Source: a virus. From it: a stretch of DNA of 64,000 nt. Location of the stretch: positions 63,321 to 127,320 of IMG/VR virus record IMGVR_UViG_3300012964_000010, one strand, 5' to 3'. Positions 14,818 through 60,182 of the stretch are shown here, one piece after another. The notes beneath the pieces were generated by a model. That model was not told where the DNA came from. It worked only from the letters and a program-made list of their open reading frames with translations, and did not search any database. A program made the translations under genes and the position numbers. The stretch's first letter is position 1. Each line of letters opens with the position of its first letter.

Positions 14818-14865
14818 AGAACATCCTTACGATAATAGGTATTTATGACAAAGTCTTGCTACTCA

Positions 14866-14893
14866 AAAGAAAAGCCTGCACCAGTGCAGGCTT
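14866..14893 (-). terminator. intrinsic terminator after the Ro60-like gene
   Basis: AAAGCCTGCA-CTGG-TGCAGGCTTTTCTTTT. Confidence 0.75.
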
Positions 14894-14914
14894 TAAGTAT
14901 GAGATTATAATCTA

Positions 14915-16339
14915 TTAAAAATCATATCTCTGTACCATTACGGTCTTTAGAAGAATCGACAGAGGTGTCATTTCCTCACCACCGAGCACTGACTTAACAA
15001 TGCTTGGGCTGAATCCAGACACAAGTGCAGTACCAGCCTCGTTGTATGTGACAGGGCTGTTACCAGCTCGTCCATTCAAGTTCCAATATACAACTTGTGG
15101 TAGTTCGTACCCTGCGGCCTCGTACTCACTTCTCATCATATTCATTGCACTCACTGATACAGCAGCACCTCCGTTCCAACGACCGTAACTGTTACCCACT
15201 GTTACACAGGTGTTAAATTCCATGTCCGATAGGATCAGAAGCTTTGTAGGCATATCTGCCTTAGCAACACTGTGCTTCTTAGCAGCACCAAGAATTAACT
15301 TGAATGCAGCCTGAAGATCGGTGCTACCCGACCAGTTGGATCGCTCCATCTGGTTGTAACGCTGCTGAAGATTGCCAGCGACCTTCAGCATTGCTGGCTG
15401 GCTAGAGAAGGTAATGAACTGATCCTTAAATACACCACCTGCGCGTTCGGAAACATACAGACCCAACGAGATAGCAACATCCAGTGCAGTTACGCTACCA
15501 GACACATTTACACCATCCATCGAACCAGAGACATCAACCAACGGCATGATGTTTTCATTGGAGCCTTCCAAATAGTTAGGCAATGCCTTCCACTGTTCAT
15601 TAGCTACTGTAGCGTCACCGTTACGCATAGAACGAATCACATCGTAAGGAAAAGCAACCGACGCATTGATCTTAGCTTCACCGGATACCAGCTTTTCCTT
15701 GTATGCGGAGTAACCTACCGGGTCGTGCTTCAAGAATGCCTTCTGGTAACGACCAGCAGCAACCGACGGAACGTGAGGATACACAATCTTAGACCAATCC
15801 TGTGCACACATCTTCTGTTCAACAGTGTTGGACAGACCTACCAGTAACTTACGATACTGCTTAGGTGTTAGACGCATATAAGAACGGATCTTATTTGCTT
15901 CTGCACCCTGACGTGGCATCCACTTAGCACATAATCCATCCTTTGCATCGTTCAATGCAAAAGAAATCATACGCAAAGCTTCTCGTTCAATTGGTGTACC
16001 GAGTGCAATAATCACATCGTCCCAACGACCAAGTTCGGGCATCTTCACCAATACTCGTGCAGCCAAAGCAGGTTCGGTACGAACAAGATAGCCAAACAAC
16101 TTACGGAAGGTTTCGCGCTCGCCGGCGCCACCACGTGCATCACGTGCCCATTCAAGGACACGAACTGCAACTTCAGAATCTTCGGCCAACGCACCTGCAA
16201 AAGTAGAGGTAATATCCTTGCCACGACTTGCGCCGGCCAAGAAAAATAGATCCACGTTCTTGTTCAGAGACGAGGCATTGGTAACTGCGCCGTTGGCAGT
16301 TGTTGCGGATGCGTTTACAGCTTCAAATAGTGTGCTCAT
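14915..16339 (-). CDS. Ro60/TROVE-like protein with vWA domain (DUF2828 family)
   Basis: T.NGA, WARDARGGAGERETFR, GRWDD and AKWMPR motifs; MIDAS DVSGSM and ILSDMEF; start re-assigned to the ATG after GAAGGAGA. Confidence 0.8.
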   Translation of the reverse strand: MSTLFEAVNASATTANGAVTNASSLNKNVDLFFLAGASRGKDITSTFAGALAEDSEVAVRVLEWARDARGGAGERETFRKLFGYLVRTEPALAARVLVKMPELGRWDDVIIALGTPIEREALRMISFALNDAKDGLCAKWMPRQGAEANKIRSYMRLTPKQYRKLLVGLSNTVEQKMCAQDWSKIVYPHVPSVAAGRYQKAFLKHDPVGYSAYKEKLVSGEAKINASVAFPYDVIRSMRNGDATVANEQWKALPNYLEGSNENIMPLVDVSGSMDGVNVSGSVTALDVAISLGLYVSERAGGVFKDQFITFSSQPAMLKVAGNLQQRYNQMERSNWSGSTDLQAAFKLILGAAKKHSVAKADMPTKLLILSDMEFNTCVTVGNSYGRWNGGAAVSVSAMNMMRSEYEAAGYELPQVVYWNLNGRAGNSPVTYNEAGTALVSGFSPSIVKSVLGGEEMTPLSILLKTVMVQRYDF

Positions 16340-16352
16340 TTTAATTTCTCCT

Positions 16353-16388
16353 TCAGAATTTATTTTAAGTTTGCTGTTAAAATTCTTT
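16353..16388 (-). promoter_or_regulatory. minimal Y-RNA-like motif in the 5' UTR of the Ro60-like gene (copy 1)
   Basis: AAAGAATTTTAACAGCAAAC...AAATTCTGA; 3' strand abuts the RBS. Confidence 0.7.
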
Positions 16389-16402
16389 ATTAGCAAGTAT
16401 GT

Positions 16403-16431
16403 AGTTTATACAACTACGGTTTAGTTGTCAA
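16403..16431 (-). promoter_or_regulatory. sigma70-type promoter of the Ro60-like gene
   Basis: TTGACA-N17-TAAACT. Confidence 0.6.
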
Positions 16432-17276
16432 CTTATTACTACCGAATTTTCCATTCGTTTAAGCAACATGTCGATAACATCTTTTTCGTGTATGCGATCA
16501 TATAAATCGGCAGGATATGTTTCGTAAAACAATCCATATAATACACCAGCGGTGGCTGCCACCGAATCACTATCTCCAGAATGGAGAATAGACAATTCGA
16601 GCATCTTATTAAAATCACCTTGGCAATTTTCAAATGCCCAAATTGCAATATTTAGGCAAGGTTCTGCTTGCCAACCACCATCACCGAATACTTCAGCAAT
16701 GGGTTTACCTTCGTACATATTCAACTTCTCTTTCCTGAGAAGTTTATTTGCTACTTCCCATTGCTTAATAGCAGTGGGTATAATTTGAGGACCTTTGTGT
16801 GTGGCAAAGGAAATATTCTTGAGCAAATCACTGTTTTCTTCGAATAAGAACGGTAATGCTTTCATTACTGTTCCACAACCATTGCTATTATTAGCAACAT
16901 GGTTTCCTGTCAAAAGTTTGTATAGCGAATGTAAACAAGTGTTTCCAGGTGCACGCACCTGCCACATCTTTATCTGATCCACCAATAACTGACTAGATCC
17001 CATAGGTGGCAATGAAGTTCCGTAATGCTGTGTTTTATCCCACATTAAGTAATGTTTGATAACAGTATCTGGACCACCCATGATCATTGCCTCAAGACCA
17101 AACATGGTCATCTGAGTATCATCAGTAATATGGATTACCTTATCAGATTTGATAAGATCTACTAATTCTTCTCTATCAGGATACGGTTCGAATTCAAAAT
17201 CTTCTCCCATTGCATCACCGATAGCCTGTGCACGAAGTGCAATGCTAATCAATCTTGCTTGCTTTTCAGTATACAC
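16428..17276 (-). CDS. ADP-ribosylglycohydrolase (DraG/ARH family)
   Basis: AIGDAMG, ITDDTQMT, SNGCG.VM and GDSDSVAA..G.L.G motifs. Confidence 0.9.
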   Translation of the reverse strand: MYTEKQARLISIALRAQAIGDAMGEDFEFEPYPDREELVDLIKSDKVIHITDDTQMTMFGLEAMIMGGPDTVIKHYLMWDKTQHYGTSLPPMGSSQLLVDQIKMWQVRAPGNTCLHSLYKLLTGNHVANNSNGCGTVMKALPFLFEENSDLLKNISFATHKGPQIIPTAIKQWEVANKLLRKEKLNMYEGKPIAEVFGDGGWQAEPCLNIAIWAFENCQGDFNKMLELSILHSGDSDSVAATAGVLYGLFYETYPADLYDRIHEKDVIDMLLKRMENSVVIS

Positions 17277-17534
17277 GTTAAATTACCATTTCTTTATTGC
17301 GTCTATATCGGTAACAATAGTACCGACCGTAGCCTTTAATACAAAGGCTACCTTATCTTCATCTGTCATTAATACTTTATACAGGTCACCCAAAGGATGA
17401 TCATTTCTTACAAATTCTACGTTATCTATTCCCCATATAATTTGCATCGCATCACCACCGTATCTGGCTCCCTCAGGCCAAGGTACACTATAAAGATAGT
17501 CGCACCTAACAGCTATGTAGACTGCTTTCATAAA

Positions 17535-17637
17535 TCAGAATCATTTTTATTGCCGGCTGCTCTACCATTGAACTACAAGGTGGGAATCGAACCCACGTCC
17601 GCCGGTTGGATTATTAATAATGCGGTAGCGATTCTTT
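17535..17637 (-). ncRNA. Y-RNA-like element (copy 2) with permuted tRNA-like T and D arms
   Basis: AGAATC/GATTCT stem, CCGCAT motif; GTGGGTTCGATTCCCAC precedes TAGTTCAATGGTAGAGCA. Confidence 0.75.
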
Positions 17638-17702
17638 AAAAAAAGGTACACCTTAGTGGATTCGGTCTTCACGACCCATATACTCATAAAGTGTAAAAAT
17701 AA

Positions 17703-17813
17703 TCAGATTAGGTTTTGATAAGTTTTTACTTTCCATATCAGAAAGGTTTTTAGCCAACCCCTTTCGGGACGGACTAAGGGTCATTATAATTTTAGATGCT
17801 GTACCTAATCTTT
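17703..17813 (-). ncRNA. Y-RNA-like element (copy 3)
   Basis: AGATTAGG/CCTAATCT stem, ACAGCAT motif, internal hairpins. Confidence 0.65.
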
Positions 17814-17879
17814 AGTGTCAAAATGTATTTTGCAATATTACTAATTATCTGTCAACCATTAAGTATGTGGTTTAATTAG

Positions 17880-18671
17880 TTAAAAATTACCAGTTGCAAT
17901 CTTTGGATTGCCAGATTTGGCCAATTCGGCTTCGATATATTTCATTTCTTTCTGAATAAAATCTATTGCCCGTTTTACCAACCTCTTATAATCGGGTGAT
18001 TGTGTTCTTTCGGGAAATATATCAGCGATACCATATTGGTCTAGTAGATGTTCGAAATATCGCATAATCTTTGGCCTGATTTGGTCTGGTGCAAATCTCT
18101 TGTATGCAATTCTTATGCTTCCAGAAAGTGTATGTAATAATTCTGCAAATCTTGCATTTATCTCTGCTGGTTGCGCTCGGTATTTCAGTGTACTGTATGG
18201 ATCATCTTTTCTGTGTTCTTTTTTCTTAGGTGTAGCATATCTTTTACTTAGGCCAGCTGCAAAGTCGGATTTATAATCATCTAAGGCATGTCTAAGTTCA
18301 TGTGTGATGGCTGTTTTAATTTTAGGATGATCAAGATAATCTGTGTTGAACACCATTGTGCTGGTATTACCGTCCCATATTGCCAACATGGTACCTGTTT
18401 CCGGATCCTTCATTACATCATCGGCTGATGATTGTCTGGCTCTCCTAAGAAATGGGCCACTGCCTTGTAATTCAATTCTTATATCTTCTAACACAGGTAT
18501 AGATGTTTCGAAAATATCACCTATTTTACCTAAGAAAAATATCTCTTGTTCTTCATCATCGAAATCTAAATCCACATTTATGTAATCTTCTAGTTTAGCA
18601 TAAATGGAAGAAGATAGAGAAATTAATGCTCTATCTTCTTCTGTGGTTTCAAATAATTCTTGTAATCGCAT
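17880..18671 (-). CDS. zincin-like (HExxH) protein, probable internal virion protein
   Basis: THELRH motif plus downstream EINA; MRLQELFE N-terminus; late motif upstream. Confidence 0.55.
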   Translation of the reverse strand: MRLQELFETTEEDRALISLSSSIYAKLEDYINVDLDFDDEEQEIFFLGKIGDIFETSIPVLEDIRIELQGSGPFLRRARQSSADDVMKDPETGTMLAIWDGNTSTMVFNTDYLDHPKIKTAITHELRHALDDYKSDFAAGLSKRYATPKKKEHRKDDPYSTLKYRAQPAEINARFAELLHTLSGSIRIAYKRFAPDQIRPKIMRYFEHLLDQYGIADIFPERTQSPDYKRLVKRAIDFIQKEMKYIEAELAKSGNPKIATGNF

Positions 18672-18901
18672 AGCATATCCTAAGATATGCTATTTATCAA
18701 GAAATAACTTCTGAGACTTCGGTAACAGAAGTATGATAGTAAACTGTATATTCTTCAGTCTTATCATCGAAGTGAGCCACAAATTTATTTGCAGCCATCT
18801 CACTAGAATCAGCCTCAACTATTCTTATAACATCTTTCTCTACGCCCTGAGAACTCATGTAGCGAGATCTTGTTACTACACCTGTTACTAAATATAGCAT
18901 G

Positions 18902-19984
18902 TCAATCTCCGGATTTAAGTAAGAAATGGTTCGATATTGCTTTAAAGCTAAATTTTCCATCCATTCTCTTATATACCTTGCCCTCACGGATAGGATGAAC
19001 AATACTCGGTCCTTCGGCATCACTCAATAAATTAGTAACATCTGTGATACCAAGTTCCTCAAGAGTGACATTATGAGCGAAGATGGGGACATGACCTACC
19101 ATGGATGTATTTAATCCAAAATTGATTAATTCTTTCATAATTTCCACCCTTTTCTCGGGATCGAAATGGCATCCATTGTCAATGTCATAGATATCGAAAA
19201 TAAATAGTTTTGCTTTTTCGAATCCTTCTTGGTTTCCCTGAATTCCCGGGCCCATGAGCTCACCCTGAATTGCAATATTCTTACCATACGCATGAAGAGC
19301 AGTTTGTAAACCACTATCAATATACATACGGATCAACATATTGTTACGATTCTCTTCAGTAAGATCGAGTTCCCAATTACGACTACAAACACCATCCTTA
19401 CTATTATTGAAGAATCCAGTAAACGAGGTGCCGTTAAGTTTCATTGTAACTTCATATTTAGAACCTTTGTTCTTAATGAAGATATCTTTTCCTAAGTTTT
19501 GACAACGTTCCTGATCAGTCTTTTTGATACAGCTCGGGTAGTTACCACGAACATTACCTGCCAACTGAGATGGGATTGGTGGTTCATATTTTAGAACACC
19601 AAGAAAGTCTGTCACATCATTCCCGACAAAGAAAAATTCAGACAATTCTTGACCTTCGTCGTATGCTGAACCAATAAACTTCTCAATGAAGCTACTAACT
19701 GGCAATGCCAATCCTTGACTAATCTGCCCTCTTAATTTAATTGTTTTAATTCGAATACCTTCTTTGTCACCCATCTTCTTGTATGCACGAGAACGCAGGT
19801 GTTCTACCTGGGGCATAAGAGGAATAAGACTATCGATTTCGAAATAAACACAACGATCGCCGATTTTAAATTCGTCTTTCTTAACAACTAATTTCCAGTC
19901 ATCGACTGTTGCCACCATAATGGCATCTGCATCCTCTATGGGCTCAATGTTTTTAATTATTCTAATTGATGCTAATTTTCTCAT
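18902..19984 (-). CDS. RNA ligase, DRB0094/Rnl2-like family
   Basis: MRKLASIR..I..I..AD.I OB-like N-domain; KTDQER, motif I KLNGTS, AIQGELMGPGIQGN, REG.V.K, SFKAISN. Confidence 0.9.
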   Translation of the reverse strand: MRKLASIRIIKNIEPIEDADAIMVATVDDWKLVVKKDEFKIGDRCVYFEIDSLIPLMPQVEHLRSRAYKKMGDKEGIRIKTIKLRGQISQGLALPVSSFIEKFIGSAYDEGQELSEFFFVGNDVTDFLGVLKYEPPIPSQLAGNVRGNYPSCIKKTDQERCQNLGKDIFIKNKGSKYEVTMKLNGTSFTGFFNNSKDGVCSRNWELDLTEENRNNMLIRMYIDSGLQTALHAYGKNIAIQGELMGPGIQGNQEGFEKAKLFIFDIYDIDNGCHFDPEKRVEIMKELINFGLNTSMVGHVPIFAHNVTLEELGITDVTNLLSDAEGPSIVHPIREGKVYKRMDGKFSFKAISNHFLLKSGD

Positions 19985-35285: not shown

Positions 35286-35395
35286 ATTTTCCTTTTTAAC
35301 AGCACACAGAACAAGTGCTCAAAGTTTCAGTTCTGTTAGGTGTCCACCTGTTGGACAAAAGTATTTACCTCTTATGTTTAAGGTATACTCAGTGA

Positions 35396-35416
35396 AATAG
35401 GGACCGAAGTCCCTAT
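35396..35416 (-). terminator. terminator after tmRNA
   Basis: ATAGGGAC-TTCG-GTCCCTATTT. Confidence 0.7.
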
Positions 35417-35805
35417 GGTAATTTCTGTTACGAGGTATTTCCTACCCTAAGTAGCGTTTAGGCCACTAAAGCGAACATTTCGTTGTTTGCGTTTACGTTT
35501 TTTCTTGATTTACGGTCTTGCCTCCGTGCTGTCTGCTCTGATACTTATTACCCTGTCGAAACCATGACAGGCCCATCATAAATATACTTTGGAAGACCAC
35601 CTTTAAAACCTAAAAAATGGTATCCCATAGTAGTAAGATCATAAAGTAAAGGTGTCCAGCACACTCTTAATACCCTGTCGTTTTTGTCAACTTCGACAAA
35701 ATACTGTTTTACTTTTTTATCAATTATCATATATTTATGGTGGACCTGGCGGGAGTCGAACCCGCGTCCAGAATATCTTTCTCTTTACTTCATACAGCAA
35801 TAACT
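35417..35805 (-). ncRNA. ssrA: circularly permuted (two-piece) tmRNA, tag ANNEMFALVA
   Basis: Acceptor piece ...GGACGCGGGTTCGACTCCCGCCAGGTCCACCA (ends 35738) precedes coding piece GGGCCTGTCATGGTTTCGAC (starts 35574); G3.U70; tag frame GCA AAC AAC GAA ATG TTC GCT TTA GTG GCC TAA. Confidence 0.9.
35548..35730 (-). CDS. small ORF in the tmRNA intervening segment
   Basis: 60-aa ATG ORF filling the spacer and overlapping the coding-piece 5' end. Confidence 0.4.
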   Translation of the reverse strand: MIIDKKVKQYFVEVDKNDRVLRVCWTPLLYDLTTMGYHFLGFKGGLPKYIYDGPVMVSTG

Positions 35806-35820
35806 TACATTATATTTATC

Positions 35821-36489
35821 TTACCACAATAAGTCAAAGTTACCACGCAATACCTTTGCCACACTTGCGGATCTTCCAGTTATATGATCTTTCACAATAT
35901 CATCTTGGAAACGATAAGTTCTAATCTTGTCACCTCTCATACCAGAACCAACCTGTTCCTTACGATTTGATGCAAGAGTAATATATTGTTCGGATGTATC
36001 ATTATCCTTAAGTTGATTTAATAAAGATGTCTTTGCTTGTTCTAAACTGTTTAACCTTGACCGGCATTGTGCAGTTGCTACTATACCGCTCTCGATGTGT
36101 GTTATACGGCACGAATTTTGGTGTTTATTGCGGTGCTGACCGCCTGCACCTGTACCACTATACCACTCGATTCTAAAATCAGAATCTTTATATTGTTTTT
36201 CTTGTGTTTCAGAATTTATTATTGCAACAGTTACGGTACTTGTATGTACTCGTCCTTTGCGTTCTGTAGGCGGAACACGCTGTATTCGGTGGCCGCCCGA
36301 TTCATTCTCTAATGTAGATAAATCTTTGCCGCTGACTTCAATGTGTATTTCTCCGGGCTGTTCTTTAACTACTTGATTGATTCAGCCGACCCGACTAAAA
36401 TGCCGTTGATATGCCTGAGCAAGATCTGCCATAAATAATTTGCTATCTTCGCCGCCTTCTGCGGCACGAATTTCGATTACACGTTTCAT
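35821..36489 (-). CDS. RF1-like peptide chain release factor lacking domain 1, with in-frame TGA at codon 36
   Basis: Manual translation MKRVIEIRAAEGGEDSKLF...SRVG*INQ...ESGGHRIQRVPPTERKGRVHTST...GTGAGGQHRNK...GSGMRGDKIRTY; 223 codons in one frame; GGAG RBS. Confidence 0.88.
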
Positions 36490-39811: not shown

Positions 39812-39877
39812 ACAGAATACTTTTTCTTTTCAAAGATAATGGTTTTGAAATTTTTAAATTTGCTGGAAGTACTCTTT
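39812..39877 (-). ncRNA. Y-RNA-like element (copy 4)
   Basis: AGAGTAC/GTATTCT stem, TTCCAGCAA motif, internal hairpin TTTCAAA/TTTGAAA. Confidence 0.7.
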
Positions 39878-39886
39878 AAAACTAAA

Positions 39887-39972
39887 ACAGAATTCTTTTA
39901 ACAAGTCCTGTTACAGACCCGATTGGAGTTGAACCAATTTTAACCATAAGGTTGTTGCTGGAAGAATTCTTT
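39887..39972 (-). ncRNA. Y-RNA-like element (copy 5) with T-arm
   Basis: AGAATTC/GAATTCT stem, TTCCAGCAA motif, ATTGG-TTCAACT-CCAAT. Confidence 0.7.
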
Positions 39973-40985: not shown

Positions 40986-41048
40986 TCAGAATGTGCTTTT
41001 TAGTTTCATTTACTGTGAAATTGTTTTAATTTGCTGAATACATTCTTT
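40986..41048 (-). ncRNA. Y-RNA-like element (copy 6) with GTA anticodon-like hairpin
   Basis: AGAATGT/ACATTCT stem, TTCAGCAA motif, TTTCA-CAGTAAA-TGAAA. Confidence 0.72.
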
Positions 41049-41711: not shown

Positions 41712-42545
41712 TATAATTCGGAGGATTGAGACTACATCCTTCACGTTAGAACTTTGGAGATTATAGTAAACCTTGCGAGTTCACCTTCTTCCGATATCCA
41801 CATAAACCCTTAGCGGTATCTATGTATCCTAACAACATCGCCGTTTTAAGTCAGGCGGTAGACTTGACATGATGTTCTACTCTGTGTTTTCTTTCCCGTC
41901 TGCCTTGCGAGCAGTTCACAGTCGCTAAACCGTTCCGAAACGTCTTTCACAAACTAATGTTGCCTTGCGAGCTTCATTAGACTTAGTTACCTTGCGGCCT
42001 AAGTATTAGATGTCTTTCAAACATCACCGAAGTAGTCTTTGCGTTTAGTTCATATAACAAAAATGAGTGTCTTCCGACAATCTACTGTGATGTGCTACTT
42101 CAGTTGCTGAATATCTTGTTAGATACCCAATACAACACACCACGTACCGTTCACCTGCCGGTTAATAAGTCGTCTTTCACGATCAATGTCATTTTGAGTG
42201 CCACTAACCATTCATACTGCATATAAGCCCTTGCCTGCGAAAACTCGGACAAATACACTACCCTTTCTCATACTATCTGACAAGTTGGTTTGTTGTGAGG
42301 TCAGCACCACCTGTTACTCTTTGTTAACTGGCGTTCCCCTTACGGGCGTCTAAGTTAACATTCTTTCCACAACACTTGCTTCAATATTACCTCACCCGGT
42401 GTTATCAGATAAGGATGCCTTTCGGCACTGAGCAGGCTTGCATAGGTGAACCATTTAACTGGCGCTGGTATGTAGACATTCCAGCTTTGGGTGTATTGCT
42501 ACACTTATTCTAAAGAGACTATGCTCCCAAGTCTTTATACAAATA
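41712..42545 (-). ncRNA. large structured RNA, GOLLD-like candidate
   Basis: ~830 nt without a credible ORF; repeated GCAA/GAAA tetraloop hairpins; located inside a phage tRNA cluster. Confidence 0.6.
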
Positions 42546-42649: not shown

Positions 42650-43558
42650 TTATTTCTTCAAGAATTGCAACTTGTTAGCCCAATACATTGTCCATTTCTT
42701 GTATGTTGCATTTGTATGCTCCATATCAAGATTTGCAGGAATACATAGATCACTGGCGTATGCACCGGGCAAACCTTGCGAAGAATTTGCTGCTTTTCTT
42801 AAGATATTATGCAACTCTTCAATTATGGTAGGATCAATATCGGATCTTGCAACTATTTGGTAATTACTAACTAAATTTTCAAATCCCGAAATACCAGCAC
42901 TATTAAAAGAACTAAAGTATGAATGATTTCCACTACCACTGGATCCAATTGCATTCAATTTGCCATCTACAATATATTGTTGTAAAAATGCAGGAAGATC
43001 GACATTAAGGTCAAGATTGCCTCCAATAACATCAAGTGTTGGTTGCAATGTGCCTTGATAACCAATAAAAATTAATTCAGTATTAGGCAGGGCAAGTTGA
43101 AGTTGGCGAGCAAGCGCTTCTGTTAGACTACCCTGGATCATACCGATGCTAAGTCGTTTCTGTTTCCTGAGGTCATTAATTGTTTTATATTTGGCGCTGG
43201 TAATAATATATGGTTGACCGGTACACTCGATTAAAACAGGACGGAAGTCCTCAACCCGATAACTTTGGTCGGGATAAAACTGTGGACGGACAAAAAAACT
43301 ACTTGAACTACTTAATAATGCAATACCTTTGTAGTTTGATACATAATTTGCTGCTATTGTGCCGCCGGCACCGGGCTTATTTTCAAAGATAAAATTATAT
43401 TTGTCTTGTTGAATATTAGCTTCTGCAATAATCAACCTAATAAAATTAGCCTGTTGACTTCCGATTGCAAATGGCCATACAATGGGTACAGTTTGTTTTT
43501 CAGTAGCAAAAACTGAAAAAGAAATCATAGCAAGTAACATAATAATTATTTTTTTCAT
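42650..43558 (-). CDS. Bug/TctC family solute-binding protein
   Basis: ENKPGAGGTIA, YQG...TLDVIGG.LD and DGKL.AIG motifs. Confidence 0.8.
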   Translation of the reverse strand: MKKIIIMLLAMISFSVFATEKQTVPIVWPFAIGSQQANFIRLIIAEANIQQDKYNFIFENKPGAGGTIAANYVSNYKGIALLSSSSSFFVRPQFYPDQSYRVEDFRPVLIECTGQPYIITSAKYKTINDLRKQKRLSIGMIQGSLTEALARQLQLALPNTELIFIGYQGTLQPTLDVIGGNLDLNVDLPAFLQQYIVDGKLNAIGSSGSGNHSYFSSFNSAGISGFENLVSNYQIVARSDIDPTIIEELHNILRKAANSSQGLPGAYASDLCIPANLDMEHTNATYKKWTMYWANKLQFLKK

Positions 43559-44351: not shown

Positions 44352-45317
44352 TTAGAATTTCTTACCATTTGAAAGGCTGCTAAGTAACCCAGGACTAAAA
44401 TATGTATTATACTTGTTGTACAAACCTCTGGTAGCAAGTTCAAAACGACTACGCTCTTTGGTAGACATTTTAATTGTAGGTATACCTTCTGCTGCTGCTT
44501 TTGTTTGAATAATTGTATTATCAGCTAGACTATCTTCTCTCTCGATTTTAGCAGCACGCATGGCTGCGGCGGCGAAGATTTTTTGCACGTCTTCACCAAG
44601 TTTCTCCCAACACTGTTTATTAATAACTAAGCTAGTCAAGAATAGACTATGCTCGTTGTCGTTAATATAGTTGGTATGTTTATTTTGTTCAAGAATAAAA
44701 TAGCGAGTATAAGTAGTTTCACCGCCATCTATCTCATTAAATTCGAGCTTTGATGTAAGATCTTCGATAAAAGTAGGAATTGGTGTAGCTCCGACAACAG
44801 CAAAGGTATCCATAGAGACTGGATTCTTGCCACAACCGATGTTCAATTGATAAAAATCTTCCAATTTTTCAATTGCGTGTTTACTCGGGACAATACGAAA
44901 ACCGCCACTATATGTGAATGTTAACCCGCGAATATTACTGTGATCGGCAACCTTGGCTAACATTTTCTGACCAATTTCCCCATCAATTACCTTTTGTGCA
45001 ATGTCATGATCATTAAAAAGGAAAGGCATTGACAATGCAAACATATCCTTATCGATATTACCGAGTGTATTAGCATACACAGTGGCCATGTCAATCGTAC
45101 CGTTATTGATTAAATTAATAATCTTTTCACGATCTGTGGTTAGATTGGTTAGATTTTGATCTGCTAATCTATTCCATTCTTTTAAATCAATAACATTTAT
45201 CTTATAACGACCATTTGTTTCAGCAAATATTTCATCAGAGAAACTCTGCGCCGCTTTAATAAAAACATGATAAGGCTCGTGTGCTAATACCCAATTCAAT
45301 GTAGTACATTGTGACAT
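44352..45317 (-). CDS. TRAP transporter solute-binding protein (DctP family)
   Basis: ETNGR..I, G.IDMA, L.MPFLF, GFR and IDGGE motifs. Confidence 0.8.
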   Translation of the reverse strand: MSQCTTLNWVLAHEPYHVFIKAAQSFSDEIFAETNGRYKINVIDLKEWNRLADQNLTNLTTDREKIINLINNGTIDMATVYANTLGNIDKDMFALSMPFLFNDHDIAQKVIDGEIGQKMLAKVADHSNIRGLTFTYSGGFRIVPSKHAIEKLEDFYQLNIGCGKNPVSMDTFAVVGATPIPTFIEDLTSKLEFNEIDGGETTYTRYFILEQNKHTNYINDNEHSLFLTSLVINKQCWEKLGEDVQKIFAAAAMRAAKIEREDSLADNTIIQTKAAAEGIPTIKMSTKERSRFELATRGLYNKYNTYFSPGLLSSLSNGKKF

Positions 45318-47073: not shown

Positions 47074-47130
47074 TCAGACTACGCTTTTTTCACTATAAGT
47101 AAATTTTTAAATTTGCCGAATGTAGTCTTT
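47074..47130 (-). ncRNA. Y-RNA-like element (copy 7)
   Basis: AGACTAC/GTAGTCT stem, TTCGGCAA motif, hairpin TTTA-CTTATAG-TGAA. Confidence 0.7.
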
Positions 47131-47138
47131 AGAATTAT

Positions 47139-48343: not shown

Positions 48344-49209
48344 TTATGACAATCCTGTTATATCAATCCCGTGTGTTTCCCACCACCACTCACTGGGCTG
48401 ATTATTGTGTTTCTTTGAAAGTTGATTATACTTTTTCTGTTGCTTAAGAAATCTATCTTTCTCTTTATCAAAGAGTTCATTATTCCAGTAACCATTTTCA
48501 ACAATTATTTTTCGTATGAGTCGACGCAGTATGTATCCCTGTTTGGTCGGTCCGGGAAGTATTCCTTCGTTGACCAAACATTCCAATACAAACCGAATCT
48601 TATCATGATTAGTCATTGGATATATTTCAGAAACAAACTGTTCTATTCTCTCTAATCCGAATCCAACATCTAAACATGTACCAAACGGATTTACTATATT
48701 ACCAATCTCCACGTCCTTGTAATAGAATTCAGTGCAATAACTTTCGTTTGTGCCATCACTCCATATACACTCTGTATCCGGTCGAACTTCAACCTTATAC
48801 ATATCATAATAACCTATCCACTCTGTCATCTTATCTGGATGAATTGTTACATAATCAGGTGTTATTCCCAGTTTATTCAGGAATTCATAGAAAAATTGAA
48901 TTCCGTCCTTCAATTGCCAGTGTCTAAATGAAAATAGTCCAATCATATGGAAGCCCAAATGATGCCCATCTAATTCATCAAGGTCATGCAACCTAACACA
49001 GCGTTGCACATCAACTAAAGTGATATTTGAGCAACCCGTATCAGAAAACTTCTGTTTATGTTTTTGCATTCCAGATGTGGTCAACAATGTTGTCGAGTCT
49101 GGCGGCAAAATACTGGAAATAAATTCTACATTTAGTCCATAATCTATACAGTGTTGAACATAGATTTGATATGTAAGTGTATCTTTTACATTGCGTTTAG
49201 CGGTGACAT
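48344..49209 (-). CDS. alaS: alanyl-tRNA synthetase catalytic domain only; start codon out of frame
   Basis: TTLLTTSGMQ, VQRCVR..DLD, FHMIG.FSF, CTEF, VEIGNIV, LDVGFGLERI, GYILRRLIR motifs; RBS-linked ATG at 49209 needs a -1 shift (or TTG start at 49108). Confidence 0.8.
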
Positions 49210-49418: not shown

Positions 49419-49477
49419 TCAGAATGCTTATTTTTCAATTAAAAGTTGAATTTTTAAGGTTGCAGAACGCATTCTTT
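49419..49477 (-). ncRNA. Y-RNA-like element (copy 8) with Lys(TTT) anticodon hairpin
   Basis: AGAATGC/GCATTCT stem, TTCTGCAA motif, TTCAA-CTTTTAA-TTGAA. Confidence 0.75.
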
Positions 49478-51434: not shown

Positions 51435-51581
51435 TCAGAATTCACGTTTCTTACTCTGCTCTACCAACTGAGCTATCTTCCCTTTAAACACATTCTATGA
51501 ATGTGCTTAGTGGGAAGAGGTGGAGTTGAACCACCGACACGAGGCTTTTCATGCTAGAAAATTTTGCTGGAGGAATTCTTT
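51435..51581 (-). ncRNA. YrlA-like Y RNA (copy 9) with full permuted tRNA domain
   Basis: AGAATTC/GAATTCT stem, CTCCAGCAA motif; T arm GGTGG-TTCAACT-CCACC, closed acceptor TCTTCCC/GGGAAGA, D arm TAGCTCAGTTGGTAGAGCA. Confidence 0.82.
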
Positions 51582-53341: not shown

Positions 53342-54364
53342 TTAGACTCCAGTCCAGATTAGTACATTTGTATCTTCAACCAGTTTACGGTTGATAGACG
53401 TCGACTGAATAAAGATGTCGTATTGACCATGTTTACCGGGTGCGAGTTTTACTTCACCTGTGTGTGGCAAGCCGAGCATATCGCGTGCTGCAAATCCGCT
53501 ATAAACAGCGCCTTTTTTGTCACGAATAGCAATCTGCTTGTAGTCTTGCACGTTTTCAGTCTTGGTCAACTGATAGAATGCAGAACCCTTCACTAACGGC
53601 TTTTTGGTCTTCTGTTCTACAAAATCGCGAATCTGAATTCCACCTTCAGATGGTGCAACCTTAAACACCGAAACTTCGCCAGAGACATCTACTAGGTTCT
53701 TTTTAACTTCAGTAATTGTTACATTGCTCAAATCGGCATAAAATTTGTCAGTACTCTTCACGCCGGATGCACGAGCTGCATAGAATCCTTTAAATGCAGA
53801 ACGAGTGGCTGCGGTTGCAACCTGAACACCTCGATCGCTTTGATCCCATTCGAGAATATTTCCCTCTGGGATACCGTATTGTGTCAGATTACGCTTATAA
53901 CCACGTGGGACACGGAACACAAAAGTCCAACGATCAGTTGCCTGAAGTTCTTTAATTTTACGACCAATGGACGCGCCTGTCCAATTTCTTGAAGAATTTT
54001 CTTCACCATCAGTAATAACCATTACCACAAACGACACGTTAATGTCATCTGCATCAGGTACGGCCTGAAGTTGTTCAATCAGGTCACCGACGCTGTCGAA
54101 CAACGGAGTTGAATTACCATCAGCGATGTAATCGCCATCTTTAATAGGTTTCAACATCTGCACGTTAGAATTAACAACCTCACGAACAACTGCTGCCGGG
54201 CGGCCTGCACCACATTTTACCACACTAACAATAGTGTCAATGTTATGTTCAGTGGCACCTTCCTTAATGGAGGCAATGTTATCGTTATAGTCACGACCTG
54301 CGGCCAGTGCAATATGACTCATAGAACCGCTATGATCTCGGCTAATACCTACGTAGTTCTTCAT
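53342..54364 (-). CDS. vWA domain protein
   Basis: DHSGSM, TPLFDSVG and VITDGEENSS MIDAS motifs. Confidence 0.8.
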   Translation of the reverse strand: MKNYVGISRDHSGSMSHIALAAGRDYNDNIASIKEGATEHNIDTIVSVVKCGAGRPAAVVREVVNSNVQMLKPIKDGDYIADGNSTPLFDSVGDLIEQLQAVPDADDINVSFVVMVITDGEENSSRNWTGASIGRKIKELQATDRWTFVFRVPRGYKRNLTQYGIPEGNILEWDQSDRGVQVATAATRSAFKGFYAARASGVKSTDKFYADLSNVTITEVKKNLVDVSGEVSVFKVAPSEGGIQIRDFVEQKTKKPLVKGSAFYQLTKTENVQDYKQIAIRDKKGAVYSGFAARDMLGLPHTGEVKLAPGKHGQYDIFIQSTSINRKLVEDTNVLIWTGV

Positions 54365-54427
54365 ATGTACCTTTCTGTGTAAGAATGTAAAAACTACAGT
54401 TTAAGAGTATTTTTTACTCTTGTCAAA

Positions 54428-54544
54428 TGGTGTTGCTGCCTGGGATTCGAACCCAAGATCTACTCCTTGGAATGGAAATAGATTGCTGTAAGGATCCTTA
54501 ACAGGATCACCTTTTTAGTTGTTCTACCTTTAAACTACAGCAAC
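54428..54544 (-). ncRNA. tRNA/Y-motif chimera (copy 10)
   Basis: Acceptor GTTGCTG/CAGCAAC plus ACCA, D and T arms; insert GATCCT-GTTA-AGGATC-CTTACAGCAA before TCC-ATTCCAA-GGA. Confidence 0.72.
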
Positions 54545-54618
54545 ATATTTGGTGCCAATCATTTATCCGATATATACGGCTATAAGACCAGTTAGGAATA
54601 TCGGTAATCGGCGATGAT

Positions 54619-54694
54619 TGGTGGGTTGCCAGGGAGTCGAACCCTGCTAGATCTCCTTAAGAGGGAGGTACATCTGCCGCTCTGTCAACAACCC
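54619..54694 (-). tRNA. tRNA-Lys(CTT)
   Basis: Loop CTCTTAA. Confidence 0.88.
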
Positions 54695-54700
54695 ATAATC

Positions 54701-54811
54701 TGGTGGACCGCCTGGGATTCGAACCCAGATTACCTTGTACTTACGTACGGACGGAGTCGAACCGTCTCAATCGTGATGTGCACAGTCACGGGGCGCCGCA
54801 GCCCACAGCCC
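54701..54811 (-). ncRNA. tRNA-Ala-like RNA with two T arms
   Basis: Acceptor GGGCTGT/GCGGTCC (G3.U70) plus ACCA; GACGG-TTCGACT-CCGTC and CTGGG-TTCGAAT-CCCAG. Confidence 0.65.
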
Positions 54812-54816
54812 ATTAA

Positions 54817-55343: not shown

Positions 55344-55742
55344 TTACCAATCCTTAAATTCTGATATGAATCTAATACCCGCTGTCATTCCGTTTTTAGG
55401 TGGATGGTATCTAAAAGTTACCTCAGTAAGATTACCAATCTTACTAATGGGGATGTAAAATAGTTCTTCTACATCAGGTATATACACAACAAACGCGTCG
55501 ATATTTTCTTCTGTGTATGATCGTCTATTAGTAAAAGTATTATTCTCTAATTTAAGTTGAATGGTGCCAGTCTTTGTTAGGCTTCGAAACTTAATTTGGA
55601 CACGTTTTGGGCCCAATCCTGTATCTAATACAAAATCATACGGGCAATCTTGTGGCATCTTGCCAACCCAATATCCTTTCTTGGCTGCGGCTAATACAAA
55701 TGCTGCTTCGCCTATGTCACCTTTATAATTTGTTATGCTCAT
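55344..55742 (-). CDS. PD-(D/E)XK homing-type endonuclease (I-Ssp6803I-like)
   Basis: KGDIGE, PYDFV.D, RVQIK and Y....IDAF.VY motifs. Confidence 0.8.
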   Translation of the reverse strand: MSITNYKGDIGEAAFVLAAAKKGYWVGKMPQDCPYDFVLDTGLGPKRVQIKFRSLTKTGTIQLKLENNTFTNRRSYTEENIDAFVVYIPDVEELFYIPISKIGNLTEVTFRYHPPKNGMTAGIRFISEFKDW

Positions 55743-56099: not shown

Positions 56100-56161
56100 A
56101 CAGAGTACGCATTTGGTTTCATTAAAAGTGAAAATTTTTGTGATTGCAGTAGGTACTCTTT
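56100..56161 (-). ncRNA. Y-RNA-like element (copy 11) with Lys(TTT) anticodon hairpin
   Basis: AGAGTAC/GTACTCT stem, TACTGCAA motif, TTTCA-CTTTTAA-TGAAA. Confidence 0.75.
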
Positions 56162-58191: not shown

Positions 58192-59307
58192 CTATAAGCA
58201 ACCAACAAAGTATGCCGGGCTATTCATACCACGTATACCGTTTGGCTTACCGTCAATCCAAAAAATATTATCTCGACTAAGGCCCGATAACAGGTCTTTT
58301 AGATGCCACTTGTAACGATCGAGACCTTGGTCGAGTTCCGTACTGTTAAATAAGAAATCATTGTAAGCATTATCAAACCCGAAAGTCTTCTTTAATTGAA
58401 AAGTATTTAAATCCCAATCCGGATACAATATCTTTTTCATTGCTTGTTCGGCAACTATAGGATTCAATGAATTACTTAGAGAATTTTCTCGGTTGTTAAT
58501 AATAGATTCCAGAAAGGGATTGGCTCTTATTACATTAAGTATAAGATGTACTTGTTCTACAACTATCTCTGGAAAATCTGGAGTCCAATAAAATGGTTCA
58601 AGATTTTGGCGATGCCCGGCAGAATTAATTGCATAATCAGAAAAATACGTATATATCCTGCCGTTGTCTTCGCGTAGAATTGGTTTCCCAATTCCAAATA
58701 TAGACGCTATTTTGATATTACTATCTAGTGCAGCAATCTCTGAATCTGAGGATATCGAAATTGAGTTAAACGACATTGGCGAAAAATGTTGGCCTCCAGT
58801 TTTAACATGAATATCTTTGTCCGATACCGATGATAACTGTTCTCTGAATCCGTCAGATGTATCTTTTACACTAATCTTCAATTCAGGATGCTCAGAGCGC
58901 AACTTTGTTAATGCAGGTTTAATTGTAATATTCCACTCGTTTAGATAATTTGTCGGATCTGAACTATTGCTATATGGTGTAGCTTCAGCTAATCTTATTG
59001 GCCAACGTACAAAGACTTCATCGAGTTTAATTCCATTATCAATAAATGATCGAAGAACATTTGTACTATCACTGCCTGCACTATAATGAAGAACAAGGTA
59101 GTCATATTTTTCTCGAAGCTGTTGTGCCCTTAATCTATACAACTCTTTAAGAGGTACATTTAAAGGGCGAGTCCAATTAACTGTAGCAAATCTACTATTG
59201 AAGAAATCCCATATAACTTGTTGCCTAGTAGAATTGGCATGAAGGAGTGCTTCTAATTTATTTTCAAAGATTCTTTCACCAACTTTGTAAACACCACGCG
59301 ATCCCAT
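58192..59307 (-). CDS. PP-loop/adenine nucleotide alpha-hydrolase-like protein
   Basis: RAQQLREKYDYLVLHYSAGSDSTNVL motif. Confidence 0.6.
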   Translation of the reverse strand: MGSRGVYKVGERIFENKLEALLHANSTRQQVIWDFFNSRFATVNWTRPLNVPLKELYRLRAQQLREKYDYLVLHYSAGSDSTNVLRSFIDNGIKLDEVFVRWPIRLAEATPYSNSSDPTNYLNEWNITIKPALTKLRSEHPELKISVKDTSDGFREQLSSVSDKDIHVKTGGQHFSPMSFNSISISSDSEIAALDSNIKIASIFGIGKPILREDNGRIYTYFSDYAINSAGHRQNLEPFYWTPDFPEIVVEQVHLILNVIRANPFLESIINNRENSLSNSLNPIVAEQAMKKILYPDWDLNTFQLKKTFGFDNAYNDFLFNSTELDQGLDRYKWHLKDLLSGLSRDNIFWIDGKPNGIRGMNSPAYFVGCL

Positions 59308-60182
59308 TATTTTAGTTTCTTTTCTACGGCTTCCTTAAGAGATATATGCGGTACTTCTACATCGTTTTCTTTACGATATTCCATAATCTCTGGAGAATTA
59401 AGAATCGCTGTAAATATCTCTTTCATTTTTTCTTTCCCGACATCGCTGGCGCCTGGTCTCATGAAAAGTCCAGATATAATTTCAGGTATCTTATCATGAT
59501 AACCGAGCTCTGATAATTTAGGCATATACGGATTACTACCGGATGTAATAACTAATCCGTTGATTGCACCCGACTTTATTAAAGATATAGTTCCAGGATA
59601 TGTCGATGTGCCGATGTCTAAAGACCCATTCAGTATATCCGTAATTACTGGTTTTTCGCCATTATACGGAATATAATTAATGTTTGGTCTATTTCCAAAT
59701 ATTTCGTTAACTACCACTTTTACTGCTGGTGAAAATGTACCAATATTAATATTATCAGAAGATTTTAATACTTTCTCAAAATCTTCCCATTTTTGAAATT
59801 TTGATTTACTATTTGAATAGAAAACAATTGTTGTTTTACCGACATCAACAATAGGTGTTAAAGAAAGAATACCTTTCTTTAGTTGTTCTGATTCTAGTGC
59901 CTTATACGAAAATACAGCATAAGAAACAATAGCAATGGTATTATCAGATTTCTCATTAATAATATCATAAGCACCTAAAACACCCTCGGCACCCGGTCGA
60001 TTAATTACAACAATATCATACCCTTTTTCTTTACCGACCTTTTGCATAAGTCTAGCATAAACATCAAAAAATCCGCCTGCTGGATACGGTACAATTAATT
60101 TAATTGGTTCTGCAAACACCGATATAGATAGTGAAAGTAGCGAAAAGAATAGAAGTGTTCTAATAGTTTTAATTATATTCAT
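59307..60182 (-). CDS. Bug/TctC family solute-binding protein
   Basis: PIKLIVPYPAGG..DVYAR, VINRPGAEG and IPYNG...ITDILNG.LD motifs. Confidence 0.85.
   Translation of the reverse strand: MNIIKTIRTLLFFSLLSLSISVFAEPIKLIVPYPAGGFFDVYARLMQKVGKEKGYDIVVINRPGAEGVLGAYDIINEKSDNTIAIVSYAVFSYKALESEQLKKGILSLTPIVDVGKTTIVFYSNSKSKFQKWEDFEKVLKSSDNINIGTFSPAVKVVVNEIFGNRPNINYIPYNGEKPVITDILNGSLDIGTSTYPGTISLIKSGAINGLVITSGSNPYMPKLSELGYHDKIPEIISGLFMRPGASDVGKEKMKEIFTAILNSPEIMEYRKENDVEVPHISLKEAVEKKLK

Follow-up and report, generated by a model that had tools for sequence, protein, structure and literature searches.

A tRNA-shaped phage RNA with an internal handle helix, a probable non-decoding partner of a Ro60-like DUF2828 protein

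The locus described here raises the question of what role might be played by a transfer RNA (tRNA) that carries an additional helix within its anticodon arm. The window analysed is a stretch of 64,000 nucleotides (nt) of viral DNA (IMG/VR record IMGVR_UViG_3300012964_000010, positions 63,321 to 127,320), which forms the second half of a 127-kb viral record with a CheckV completeness of 32%. It holds 49 tRNA genes, a permuted transfer-messenger RNA (tmRNA) and a GOLLD RNA, all on the minus strand, together with a tRNA-shaped RNA of 117 nt at 54428-54544 (minus strand; RNA position 1 is 54544), hereafter the target, which was delineated with the Rfam tRNA model, a covariance model of our own and its minimum free energy (MFE) fold. 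Y RNAs are thought to tether the protein Ro60 to an effector, and an earlier note on this DNA had read the target as a potentially chargeable, Ro-binding RNA and a candidate link between tRNA and YrlA, a bacterial Y RNA. The findings reported below, which rest on sequence comparison of uncultured phages and metagenome-assembled genomes, suggest that the target is probably a non-decoding, tRNA-shaped partner RNA of a Ro60-like protein of the DUF2828 family, and most likely an “inside-out” relative of the YrlA-type Y RNAs.

The minus-strand sequence comprises the parts that the earlier note had named, namely a tRNA with acceptor stem, D arm, T arm and CCA, plus an inserted helix and a hairpin with the loop AUUCCAA. 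In the acceptor stem, GUUGCUG (54538-54544) as the 5′ strand pairs with 54432-54438 to form seven base pairs (bp; GUUGCUG/CAGCAAC); this strand is followed by U8-A9 and by the D arm GUUU-AAAGGUA-GAAC (54521-54535), in which the predicted fold, the Rfam alignment and covariation agree on a 4-bp stem with GG in the loop. A single base separates the D arm from ACU (54517-54519), the 5′ strand of the anticodon-stem base (tRNA positions 27-29), which pairs with AGU at 54462-54464 (tRNA positions 41-43); a local pairing of AGU is also possible. Enclosed by these two strands are the A-rich linker AAAAAGGU (54509-54516), kept in the alignment, and the hairpin GAUCCU-GUUA-AGGAUC (54493-54508), here termed the handle helix, which is supported by fold and covariation, has its strands swapped relative to the other RNAs described below and is capped by GUUA. 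The unpaired run after this hairpin reads CUUACAGCAA, and the unpaired handle motif CCUUACAGCAA occupies 54483-54493 (exact 10-mer at 54483-54492). The anticodon-like hairpin UUCC-AUUCCAA-GGAG follows in the predicted fold (54463-54477, with a 7-nt loop at 54467-54473). After AGU, a variable stretch of 4-5 nt leads to the T arm (54439-54457), whose 6-bp stem and loop UUCGAAU are seen in both the fold and the Rfam alignment, and the RNA ends with the acceptor 3′ strand CAGCAAC, a discriminator A and an encoded CCA (54428-54438).

The insert thus amounts to 41 extra nt within the anticodon stem, between tRNA positions 29 and 30, which would convert the stem into a three-way junction. The insert that the earlier note had described is present, while the place it had been given, between the D arm and the anticodon hairpin, does not hold, as the ACU/AGU pairs after position 26 enclose the handle and the small hairpin alike. 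The continuous 5-bp anticodon stem of a tRNA is therefore interrupted by the 41-nt branch, whereas the T loop UUCGAAU, the GG of the D loop and U8 are those of the tRNA-like body of YrlA. When the region was searched alone, the Rfam tRNA model (RF00005) matched the target with 39.6 bits (gathering score 29, E 1e-6) and a 52-nt insertion in the anticodon arm; the match was absent from the listings of both whole-window searches, and ARAGORN left the target uncalled among the 50 genes of the window, as it did its orthologues in the 10 loci scanned. The MFE of the target is -36.0 kcal/mol (z-score of -3.82), and none of 200 shuffled sequences folds equally well.

The inserted helix and its motif recur elsewhere in the window. 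Ten other minus-strand RNAs share a frame, here termed the terminal handle, that opens with AAAG, one strand of a 5-7-bp helix and the motif N-U-N-C-N-GCA, continues through a cargo that varies and a tract rich in A, and closes with the second helix strand and CUG plus a further A or U. The helix sequence varies between these copies and the pairing is kept. The target motif CCUUACAGCAA agrees with the motif beside the 5′ strand of the ten copies, and an A-rich tract is found before the 3′ strand in these copies as well. The strand with which the other copies close (..AUUCUG) comes, in the target, before the strand with which they open (AAGAAU..), with 2 nt between the two, giving the order helix′-CUG (GAUCCUG), 2 nt, AAG-helix (AAGGAUC) and motif. 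The target helix and the commonest terminal helix are one compensatory pair apart (AUCCU/AGGAU vs AUUCU/AGAAU). Helix and motif are therefore the handle of the window’s RNA family in permuted order, in agreement with the earlier note. The 10-mer CTTACAGCAA by itself is not significant in the window, where 9 matches with at most one mismatch compare with 4.5 expected and 3 of 100 shuffles reach 9.

Two of the terminal-handle copies, numbered 2 and 9, display the permutation. Copy 9 (51436-51580, minus strand; fold z-score of -5.6) is a YrlA-like permuted tRNA mimic with a closed acceptor stem that matches Rfam YrlA with 32.8 bits over model positions 23-89, while copy 2 (17536-17636, minus strand; 25.5 bits) has no acceptor stem. 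Both carry the T arm before the D arm and match YrlA over its tRNA-like part, below the gathering score of 69. When copy 9 is read round from the 5′ strand of its acceptor stem, its parts come in the order of the target, with the D arm, a single base and the first three pairing bases followed by the A-rich linker, the 3′ and then the 5′ strand of the handle, the motif and the small hairpin, and after these the second three pairing bases, a 5-nt variable stretch, the T arm and the acceptor 3′ strand. Because of this common order, the target is a circular permutation of the copy-9 design in which the acceptor end is open and the handle is closed, and the permutation relative to copies 2 and 9 that the earlier note had proposed holds segment by segment. 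A BLAST search with copy 9 against four related genomes (G001, G002, G003 and G005) returned only D-arm matches of 20-23 nt, and neither an orthologue nor an internal CCA relic was traced in them.

The relatives on which the earlier note had made its case depend exist in number. A 20-base handle pattern matched 12 viral and 32 metagenome stretches, which yielded 31 distinct tRNA-shaped sequences; a looser viral pattern recovered the same 12 loci, and two metagenome matches (L031 and L040) were set aside as probable chance occurrences without tRNA context. The pattern prescribes the motif and five pairs of the helix, so that their invariance in the 31 copies is a matter of ascertainment and the copies found are biased; a covariance model of our own (R1) was built for this reason. 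R1 scores the target at 125.1 bits, as the sole full-length match in its record, and all five records searched hold one full-length copy each and no more (75-137 bits), ordinary tRNAs reaching 43 bits at most. It adds four copies that the pattern had missed, bringing the set to 35 distinct phage copies.

The copies missed by the pattern comprise one in a complete genome (G002, locus L063), one downstream of a von Willebrand factor A (vWA) gene (L002), and second paralogues in tandem. In L063 the handle reads AAUUCUG..AAGAAUU followed by CGUUCAGCA, exactly the terminal consensus, with the helix AAUUCU/AGAAUU, and in L002 it reads UUUUCUG..AAGAAAA, another covarying form (UUUUCU/AGAAAA). The motif CGUUCAGCA of the pattern-missed copies is the consensus of the terminal handles, with CUG, AAG and C-U-CAGCA fixed; C.U.CAGCA is also invariant in a six-row alignment that includes four pattern-missed copies. 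Tandem paralogues lie 6-7 nt apart (L026:2206-2446, L036:938-1178, L046:981-1222 and L012:8597-8818, the upstream paralogue of L012 being cut by the contig end), and the upstream type is distinguished by the motif CGUUCAGCAC and an 8-nt loop. A single deletion between the handle loops of two such tandem copies would leave a gene that is permuted in the manner of YrlA and contains an internal CCA.

Pairing and covariation extend over the whole RNA. Across the 35 copies, the acceptor helix is 100% paired with six of seven pairs changing on both sides, as do three of the four pairs of the D stem, which is likewise 100% paired. The helix formed by positions 27-29 and 41-43 is 100% paired in the MAFFT alignment of 31 copies and 97% paired in the 35, and all three of its pairs change on both sides (pair sets ACU/AGU, CUU/AAG, CGA/UCG and GGU/ACC). 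Overall, 95.7% of alignment cells pair in the 35 copies compared with 81.9% in shuffles, and changes on both sides are seen in 19 of the 26 pairs. The covariation score of 0.421 compares with 0.167 for shuffles and at most 0.086 for slid partners. The handle loop is GNNA in all 31 pattern-found copies, and CCA is encoded in 29 of the 31, as it is in 46 of the 49 ordinary tRNA genes of the window. In most copies the T stem has six layers, either 5 bp plus a bulge or, as in the window, 6 bp, and a clade of four copies has altered D and T loops. Among the 49 tRNAs of the window there is no clear parent tRNA of the target.

These data bear on the proposal that the target is a decaying tRNA pseudogene or a chance resemblance. 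Such a reading could draw on the missing ARAGORN call, the extra layer of the T stem and the bulged acceptor strand of some orthologues, but it is extremely improbable in the face of 35 distinct phage copies with compensatory changes in every helix, the occurrence of one copy per genome at a conserved site, and the failure of all 200 shuffles to fold as well. The same alignments address a second possibility, a tRNA gene with an intron-like insert from which the 41 nt would be excised and the ends joined to give an ordinary tRNA. Removal of RNA positions 29-69 does restore a perfect 5-bp anticodon stem (ACUCC/GGAGU) with a 7-nt loop in an RNA of 76 nt, and the phage encodes both an RNA ligase (18902-19984) and a nearby PD-(D/E)XK nuclease (55344-55742). 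The insert is, however, the best-conserved part of the RNA, with a covarying helix and an invariant unpaired motif; the same module forms the ends of ten other RNAs; 41 nt is far below the size of a self-splicing intron; and a copy without the insert was not seen at the syntenic site in the six genomes or loci compared (G000, G001, G003, G005, L010 and L013). We know of no protein-dependent tRNA splicing in bacteria or phages. Likewise, Wang et al. (2018, 10.1101/312249) state that no tRNA splicing endonuclease has been reported in bacteria. Excision of the insert is accordingly considered very improbable.

The candidate protein partner proposed here is the product of a gene at 14915-16396 (minus strand) that matches Pfam DUF7788 with 161 bits and DUF2828 with 95 bits (the product given by the gene caller starts 19 codons inside the open reading frame, ORF). 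The family is large, with 6151 cluster representatives at E <= 0.001. An AlphaFold model of the DUF2828 protein (61 sequences) has a predicted local distance difference test score (pLDDT) of 90 and a predicted template modelling score (pTM) of 0.89, and all 13 matches of this model to the PDB at E <= 0.001 in Foldseek are Ro60/TROVE structures, which include those from Xenopus, human, Deinococcus (Rsr) and a Thermus phage (E 5e-10 to 1.6e-6; TM-scores of 0.39-0.63). Plain vWA domains rank after them, at E > 0.003. According to the predicted model, the DUF2828 protein is thus Ro60-like in fold, which bears out the “Ro-like” phage protein postulated in the earlier note. No Pfam TROVE domain was found in the record, and sequence searches of the PDB with the DUF2828 and vWA proteins gave nothing useful. 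Iyer et al. (2021) report that a few jumbo phages carry a ROT/TROVE protein, for which a tRNA-like partner is known in cells.

The gene context links the DUF2828 protein to handle RNAs. The gene is found in three of the five records, namely both complete relatives and one fragment, and both complete relatives also hold the target-type RNA; in each of the three records, two to four handle RNAs lie directly upstream of the DUF2828 gene. In the window, a cargo-less handle copy (16355-16387, minus strand) lies in the leader of the gene, its 3′ strand continuing into AGGAG and ATG, an arrangement that suggests autoregulation. The RNA ligase gene at 18902-19984, which has a PHA02142 OB domain, is close to the DUF2828 gene. 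The surrounding region (14008-19984, minus strand) also encodes an Endonuclease_NS protein and an ADP-ribosylglycohydrolase, and together with the ligase these genes have a flavour of RNA damage and repair.

An independent test set of 80 bacterial DUF2828 loci gave the same association. A strict scan for terminal handles returned 35 matches on the gene strand, in 17 loci, compared with one on the other strand and 1.4 in shuffles, and R1 returned 64 matches, all on the gene strand and none opposite. Of the latter, 55 are tRNA-shaped RNAs of 96-141 nt with an internal handle, distributed over 28 of the 80 loci, mostly from Clostridia; by our own tally, 52 of them lie within ~1.3 kb upstream of the DUF2828 gene, two ~2 kb upstream and one just downstream. 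The six bacterial alignments printed display canonical tRNA arms, an internal handle with a GNRA-type cap, the motif CAGCAA and no encoded CCA, and their loops are not anticodon-like and are without U33 (for example UGGAUAU). Rfam labels the bacterial members as tRNA only. In 37 distinct best bacterial copies (E <= 1e-6, including most of the 55), the handle helix is 98% paired and six of six pairs change on both sides. These look-alikes, placed directly upstream of bacterial DUF2828 genes, are in keeping, as gene linkage, with the Ro-binding RNA that the earlier note had put forward.

The linkage is well illustrated by a Lachnospiraceae genome (G006; L148:3627-5515), where two tRNA-shaped handle RNAs and a DUF2828 gene form a small cassette flanked by housekeeping genes (pseudouridine synthase and cytidylate kinase-like) and an ECF sigma factor; phage genes, RtcB and Band-7 were absent from the nine ORFs of this locus. 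In a sample of 121 Lachnospiraceae genomes, of which 15 have DUF7788 and 106 lack it, R1 at E <= 1e-6 matched three genomes, all among the 15, with each RNA on the same contig as the DUF2828/DUF7788 match and ~0.1-1.2 kb from it, and matched none of the 106 genomes without DUF7788. Genome-wide, R1 gave nothing at E <= 1e-6 in the 12 further DUF2828-positive genomes or in 12 negative ones. A filter-free search of upstream regions added three of these 12 positives, for a total of 6/15, among them a 55-bit match that had been missed genome-wide, and the sensitivity of the genome-wide R1 search is limited for that reason. Simple text scanners returned nothing in the 12 upstream stretches of positive Lachnospiraceae.

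Strand and position in the bacterial loci also inform a third alternative, that the hairpin and motif are a cis-acting signal, either an RNase processing site or an antisense terminator, rather than a protein dock. All phage copies are located in operons of tRNAs and small RNAs, where processing signals are needed, and on the plus strand (54493-54517) the hairpin is followed by ACCTTTTTAG, the complement of the A-rich linker, and looks terminator-like. A single such terminator was found in comparison with 0.9 expected from shuffles, which is the level of chance; moreover, the unpaired motif is kept on the RNA strand and the helix covaries, copies in unrelated bacteria follow the strand of the DUF2828 gene (35 vs 1 and 64 vs 0), and the hairpin sits within the tRNA body, which cleavage would destroy. 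A purely cis-acting role is therefore regarded as very improbable.

The alternative that deserves most discussion is a working, decoding tRNA with an accessory arm, in which the handle would be a tag on a charged, ribosome-used tRNA. The target scores above the Rfam gathering threshold for tRNA, its 7-bp acceptor stem is open and its CCA is encoded, as in 46 of the 49 tRNAs of the window. The loop measures 7 nt in 27 of the 31 pattern-found copies, of which 25 have U at the place of U33 and 26 have A at the place of position 37, and the four copies with the triplet GUC all carry a discriminator G, in keeping with the identity rule for Asp. In three loci (L038, L047 and L048) the D and T arms are fully canonical, and in the two of these that were scanned with ARAGORN (L038 and L047) the element lies amid tightly packed tRNA genes. 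Against decoding stands the diversity of the triplet: the 27 loops of 7 nt comprise eight triplets (UAC 11, GUC 4, UCC 3, CAU 3, CAC 2, UCU 2, GAU 1 and UGU 1), and the remaining four loops have 8 nt. Seven genomes compared at one syntenic site have the triplets UCC, UCU, CAG, UAC, UAC, UAC and CAU, while the adjoining tRNA-Lys retains CUU in all seven. A tRNA-Gly(UCC) is likewise called in each of these genomes, and two genes for it are present in the window besides the target, whose own triplet would be UCC. In addition, the 41-nt branch splits the anticodon stem, and the bacterial members lie ahead of DUF2828 genes and outside tRNA operons, with loops that, where shown, do without U33. Decoding is thus unlikely, although the RNA could be charged, judged only from its open acceptor stem and encoded CCA.

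Several observations weigh against the proposed non-decoding partner RNA and have to be set beside the evidence for it. The handle and the five inner pairs of its helix are invariant in 31 copies only because the search pattern required them, and the model-fitted alignments (A6 and A7) lean towards its structure, a caveat that holds for the 35-copy alignment. RNAalifold, applied to the MAFFT alignment, returned neither the 27-29/41-43 helix nor the T arm and gave local pairs to two of the three 3′ positions; the alternative local lower stem is paired in 70% of cells. For these two reasons the choice between a three-way junction and a local lower stem is not unambiguous. The loop retains the U33 and A37 hallmarks of an anticodon loop, all four GUC copies have the discriminator expected of a tRNA-Asp, and excision of exactly 41 nt would leave a canonical 76-nt tRNA. 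The six sequencing runs that hold the stretch are all of DNA (wetland metagenomes), with none of RNA. The target and the DUF2828 gene are 38 kb apart in this genome, and the gene beside the target is an unrelated vWA gene. Finally, 37 of the 80 bacterial loci are without a handle RNA by either detector, and 9 of the 15 DUF2828-positive Lachnospiraceae genomes are without an R1-type RNA, within the limited sensitivity of the search.

Even so, the target is best explained as a probable partner RNA of the Ro60-like protein, and with the anatomy, conservation and covariation described above, the identity of the handle, and the linkage of both RNA topologies to DUF2828, the following course can be proposed. 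The RNA would be transcribed together with the phage tRNA genes and acquire tRNA-like ends, by RNase P at the 5′ side and by trimming to the encoded CCA at the 3′ side, with the insert retained in the mature molecule. Its L-shaped body would fold, and the anticodon stem would open after three bp into a three-way junction that gives rise to the anticodon-like hairpin and to the handle, predicted as a helix of 5-6 bp with a GNNA cap followed by unpaired C-U-CAGCA. As the shared handle and the gene linkage imply, the handle would dock the RNA on the Ro60-shaped DUF2828 protein, as the stems of Y RNAs do on Ro60. The tRNA body would then serve as an effector module, as proposed for YrlA, uniting the ring protein with readers of tRNA shape or of CCA ends. 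This role would probably be part of the phage’s answer to attacks on tRNA, the RNA ligase gene adjoining that of the DUF2828 protein.

A more far-reaching scenario can also be drawn. The hybrid RNA would be matured, perhaps aminoacylated, and handled by synthetases, EF-Tu, the CCA enzyme or anticodon nucleases while a Ro60-like ring holds its handle; the ring would thereby be brought to translation or tRNA repair, or the RNA would act as bait for tRNA-cutting defences. The handle would moreover share its ancestry with the handle of the Dictyostelium Class I RNAs, and DUF2828-handle particles would represent an old ribonucleoprotein of phages, bacteria and some eukaryotes, giving the Class I RNAs their missing protein partner. 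Taken as a whole, this scenario is a quite unlikely one.

The wider interest of the target class lies in its layout. The acceptor end of YrlA is closed, which has been taken as ruling out a tRNA-like use of that end, and the target class has the opposite layout, with a full tRNA body, a free CCA end and the docking module set internally as a side arm; its members come from large phages and, ahead of the DUF2828 gene, from gut Clostridia. If the protein binds the RNA, both topologies of “tRNA plus handle” would be in use, and the published idea that Y RNAs arose from tRNA transcripts would gain a concrete counterpart, including tandem CCA-ended pairs that one deletion could permute. What the tRNA part recruits would also become testable with a molecule that is chargeable in principle. 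On this evidence, “tRNA genes with a long insert” of 115-125 nt would constitute a separate RNA class that tRNA finders miss or mislabel.

The seven remaining terminal-handle RNAs and the neighbours of the target complete the description of the locus. Besides copies 2 and 9 and the copy in the DUF2828 leader, terminal handles occur on the minus strand at 17704-17812 (copy 3) and 39888-39971 (T-arm-like cargo), both from the handle scan, and at 47074-47131, a copy with the motif variant CGGCAA and the stem GACUAC/GUAGUC that was read by eye and missed by the scanners. Four further copies, of 57-64 nt, carry a small hairpin only as cargo: 39813-39876, found in the handle scan, and 40987-41047, 49420-49476 and 56101-56160, which match the Rfam family Dicty_Class_I with 26.7, 28.4 and 30.4 bits, respectively.

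Directly after the target, on the same strand, lies the vWA gene (53342-54364, minus strand; 340 amino acids), preceded by a sigma-70-like promoter, TTGACA-17-TAAACT (54398-54426, minus strand), which has 10 of 12 consensus matches and starts two bases past the CCA; most of the orthologues printed likewise have a TTGACA-like hexamer after the CCA. The vWA protein has a DxSxS metal site and TDG, matches PHROG 26613 (function unknown), and is modelled (pLDDT of 87) as a vWA/integrin-I-like domain with a β-rich C-terminal domain. Relatives of the gene are found in 11 viral loci, three of which show a target-type RNA directly upstream. The vWA protein was considered as a specific partner of the RNA and rejected, being syntenic in many loci and not in all, without a Pfam match or sequence likeness to the DUF2828 protein, and plain vWA in its model.

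On the other side, between tRNA-Lys and the target (54545-54622, minus strand), there is a hairpin RNA of ~70 nt with an 8-bp closing stem followed by CACCA (MFE of -18.1, z-score of -2.4), and CCA-ending elements of other sequence occupy a similar place ahead of the target in L001 and L004. An element of 121 nt at 54695-54815 (minus strand) has an acceptor-like stem, two T-arm-like hairpins that match T-arm positions of tmRNA in Rfam, and CCA; its fold z-score is only -1.3. The tRNA island also includes, on the minus strand, the GOLLD RNA (41723-42143; 196 bits) and the two-piece tmRNA (35393-35851; tag ANNEMFALVA). The match of a 254-residue ORF at 48344-49108 (minus strand) to the core of class II alanyl-tRNA synthetase is confined to the N-terminal part (tRNA-synt_2c, positions 28-156 of 552), and three periplasmic solute-binding proteins are encoded on the same strand among the tRNA genes (TctC at 42650-43558, DctP at 44352-45317 and TctC at 59307-60182).

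Rfam has no family for the target RNA, and no paper in the literature searched appears to describe it; several known systems nevertheless share parts of its design. The Class I RNAs of Dictyostelium (RF01414) are described by Kjellin et al. (2021, PMC7919456) as RNAs of 42-65 nt with a ~6-bp stem and a conserved 5′ G, in which the motif adjoins the 5′ strand, the middle varies and a 3′ CUGU contributes the C that is paired to this G; they are reported to interact with an RRM protein and to be found only in dictyostelids. Similarly, the target holds the exact 11-mer CCUUACAGCAA at 54483-54493 after AAGGAUC, a strand that starts with a G paired to the C of CUG, and its partner strand is followed by UGU; the simple copies of the window have a comparable length. 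All three Class I matches of the whole-window scan (E 0.11-0.96) are members of the handle family, with scores below the gathering score of 41.5, as is that of the target (17.1 bits). The target stem differs in being an internal, permuted hairpin that does not join the ends of the RNA, and in the phage copies the spacing from the G to CAGCA is one base shorter. Homology of the handle to the Class I RNAs is unproven.

A rotated order of parts or an interrupted anticodon arm is also found, in the summary given by Wang et al. (2018, 10.1101/312249), in those tRNA genes of algae and archaea that are circularly permuted or contain introns. Those precursors are processed by an endonuclease and a ligase into ordinary tRNAs, in contrast with the target, whose extra module is the conserved part and in whose setting no such endonuclease is known. 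The b7a-tRNA, a predicted tRNA look-alike encoded beside Band-7 and RtcB genes and occasionally Rsr (as described by Wang et al. 2018, 10.1101/312249), resembles the target as a tRNA-shaped non-coding RNA in tRNA order that is proposed to work with RNA-repair proteins and is sometimes near a Ro-type gene. Neither Band-7 nor RtcB is present in the nine ORFs of L148, the sole bacterial locus annotated, and the comparison draws on the b7a-tRNA by description. The two RNAs may be related.

Among the Y RNAs proper, YrlA, a tRNA-like RNA to which Ro60/Rsr of bacterial and mycobacteriophage origin binds, has been found in more than 250 bacteria and phages, and its T and D arms are ordered differently, relative to the RNA ends, from those of Deinococcus Yrn1, according to Chen et al. 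(2014, PMC4201824). Both arm orders thus exist already among Y RNAs; unlike the target, however, Yrn1 has in that account no acceptor stem with CCA and no full D arm, and its ends form the Ro stem. The same paper describes YrlA of M. smegmatis as cut by RNase P and receiving CCA, such that it “could potentially be aminoacylated” (Chen et al. 2014, PMC4201824). This RNA and the target have in common a tRNA-like part with an open acceptor stem and a CCA end. As that YrlA is described, its open end results from cutting a closed loop, it is a two-piece RNA and its Ro stem derives from the primary ends, whereas the target is one continuous chain encoded in tRNA order.

Most YrlA RNAs are, in the account of Wang et al. 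(2018, 10.1101/312249), circularly permuted tRNAs whose acceptor stems are closed, so that no CCA end is free; these authors expect the effector to be a protein that binds tRNA and reads its elbow, and they discuss an involvement in RNA ligation. The target shares with YrlA (RF02553), as this RNA is portrayed in these accounts, a protein-docking helix joined to a T/D-arm tRNA-like body through a stem that stands for the anticodon stem, and both are encoded with a ring-shaped HEAT+vWA protein, which for the target is the predicted Ro60-like product of a gene 38 kb away, and near RNA ligases. They differ in that YrlA’s own ends form the docking stem and its acceptor is closed, while the acceptor of the target is open with CCA and its docking helix is internal. 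The sequence of the target handle bears no likeness to the consensus Ro-binding stem of Rfam YrlA, the target gave no YrlA match at E <= 10 (gathering score 69), and its candidate protein belongs to DUF2828 and not to Pfam TROVE. Of the candidate evolutionary link between tRNA and YrlA that the earlier note had seen in the target, the kinship of design with both therefore stands; its singularity does not, the target being one member of a widespread class the helix of the target being unlike the Ro-binding stem and its record holding no Pfam TROVE domain. The direction of evolution cannot be read from these data. Among models for the origin of permuted RNAs of this kind, Wang et al. (2018, 10.1101/312249) cite one in which they arose from dimeric tRNA transcripts. 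The tandem pairs described above fit this model, in whichever direction it may have run, and the target fits the place of a tRNA-order counterpart of YrlA.

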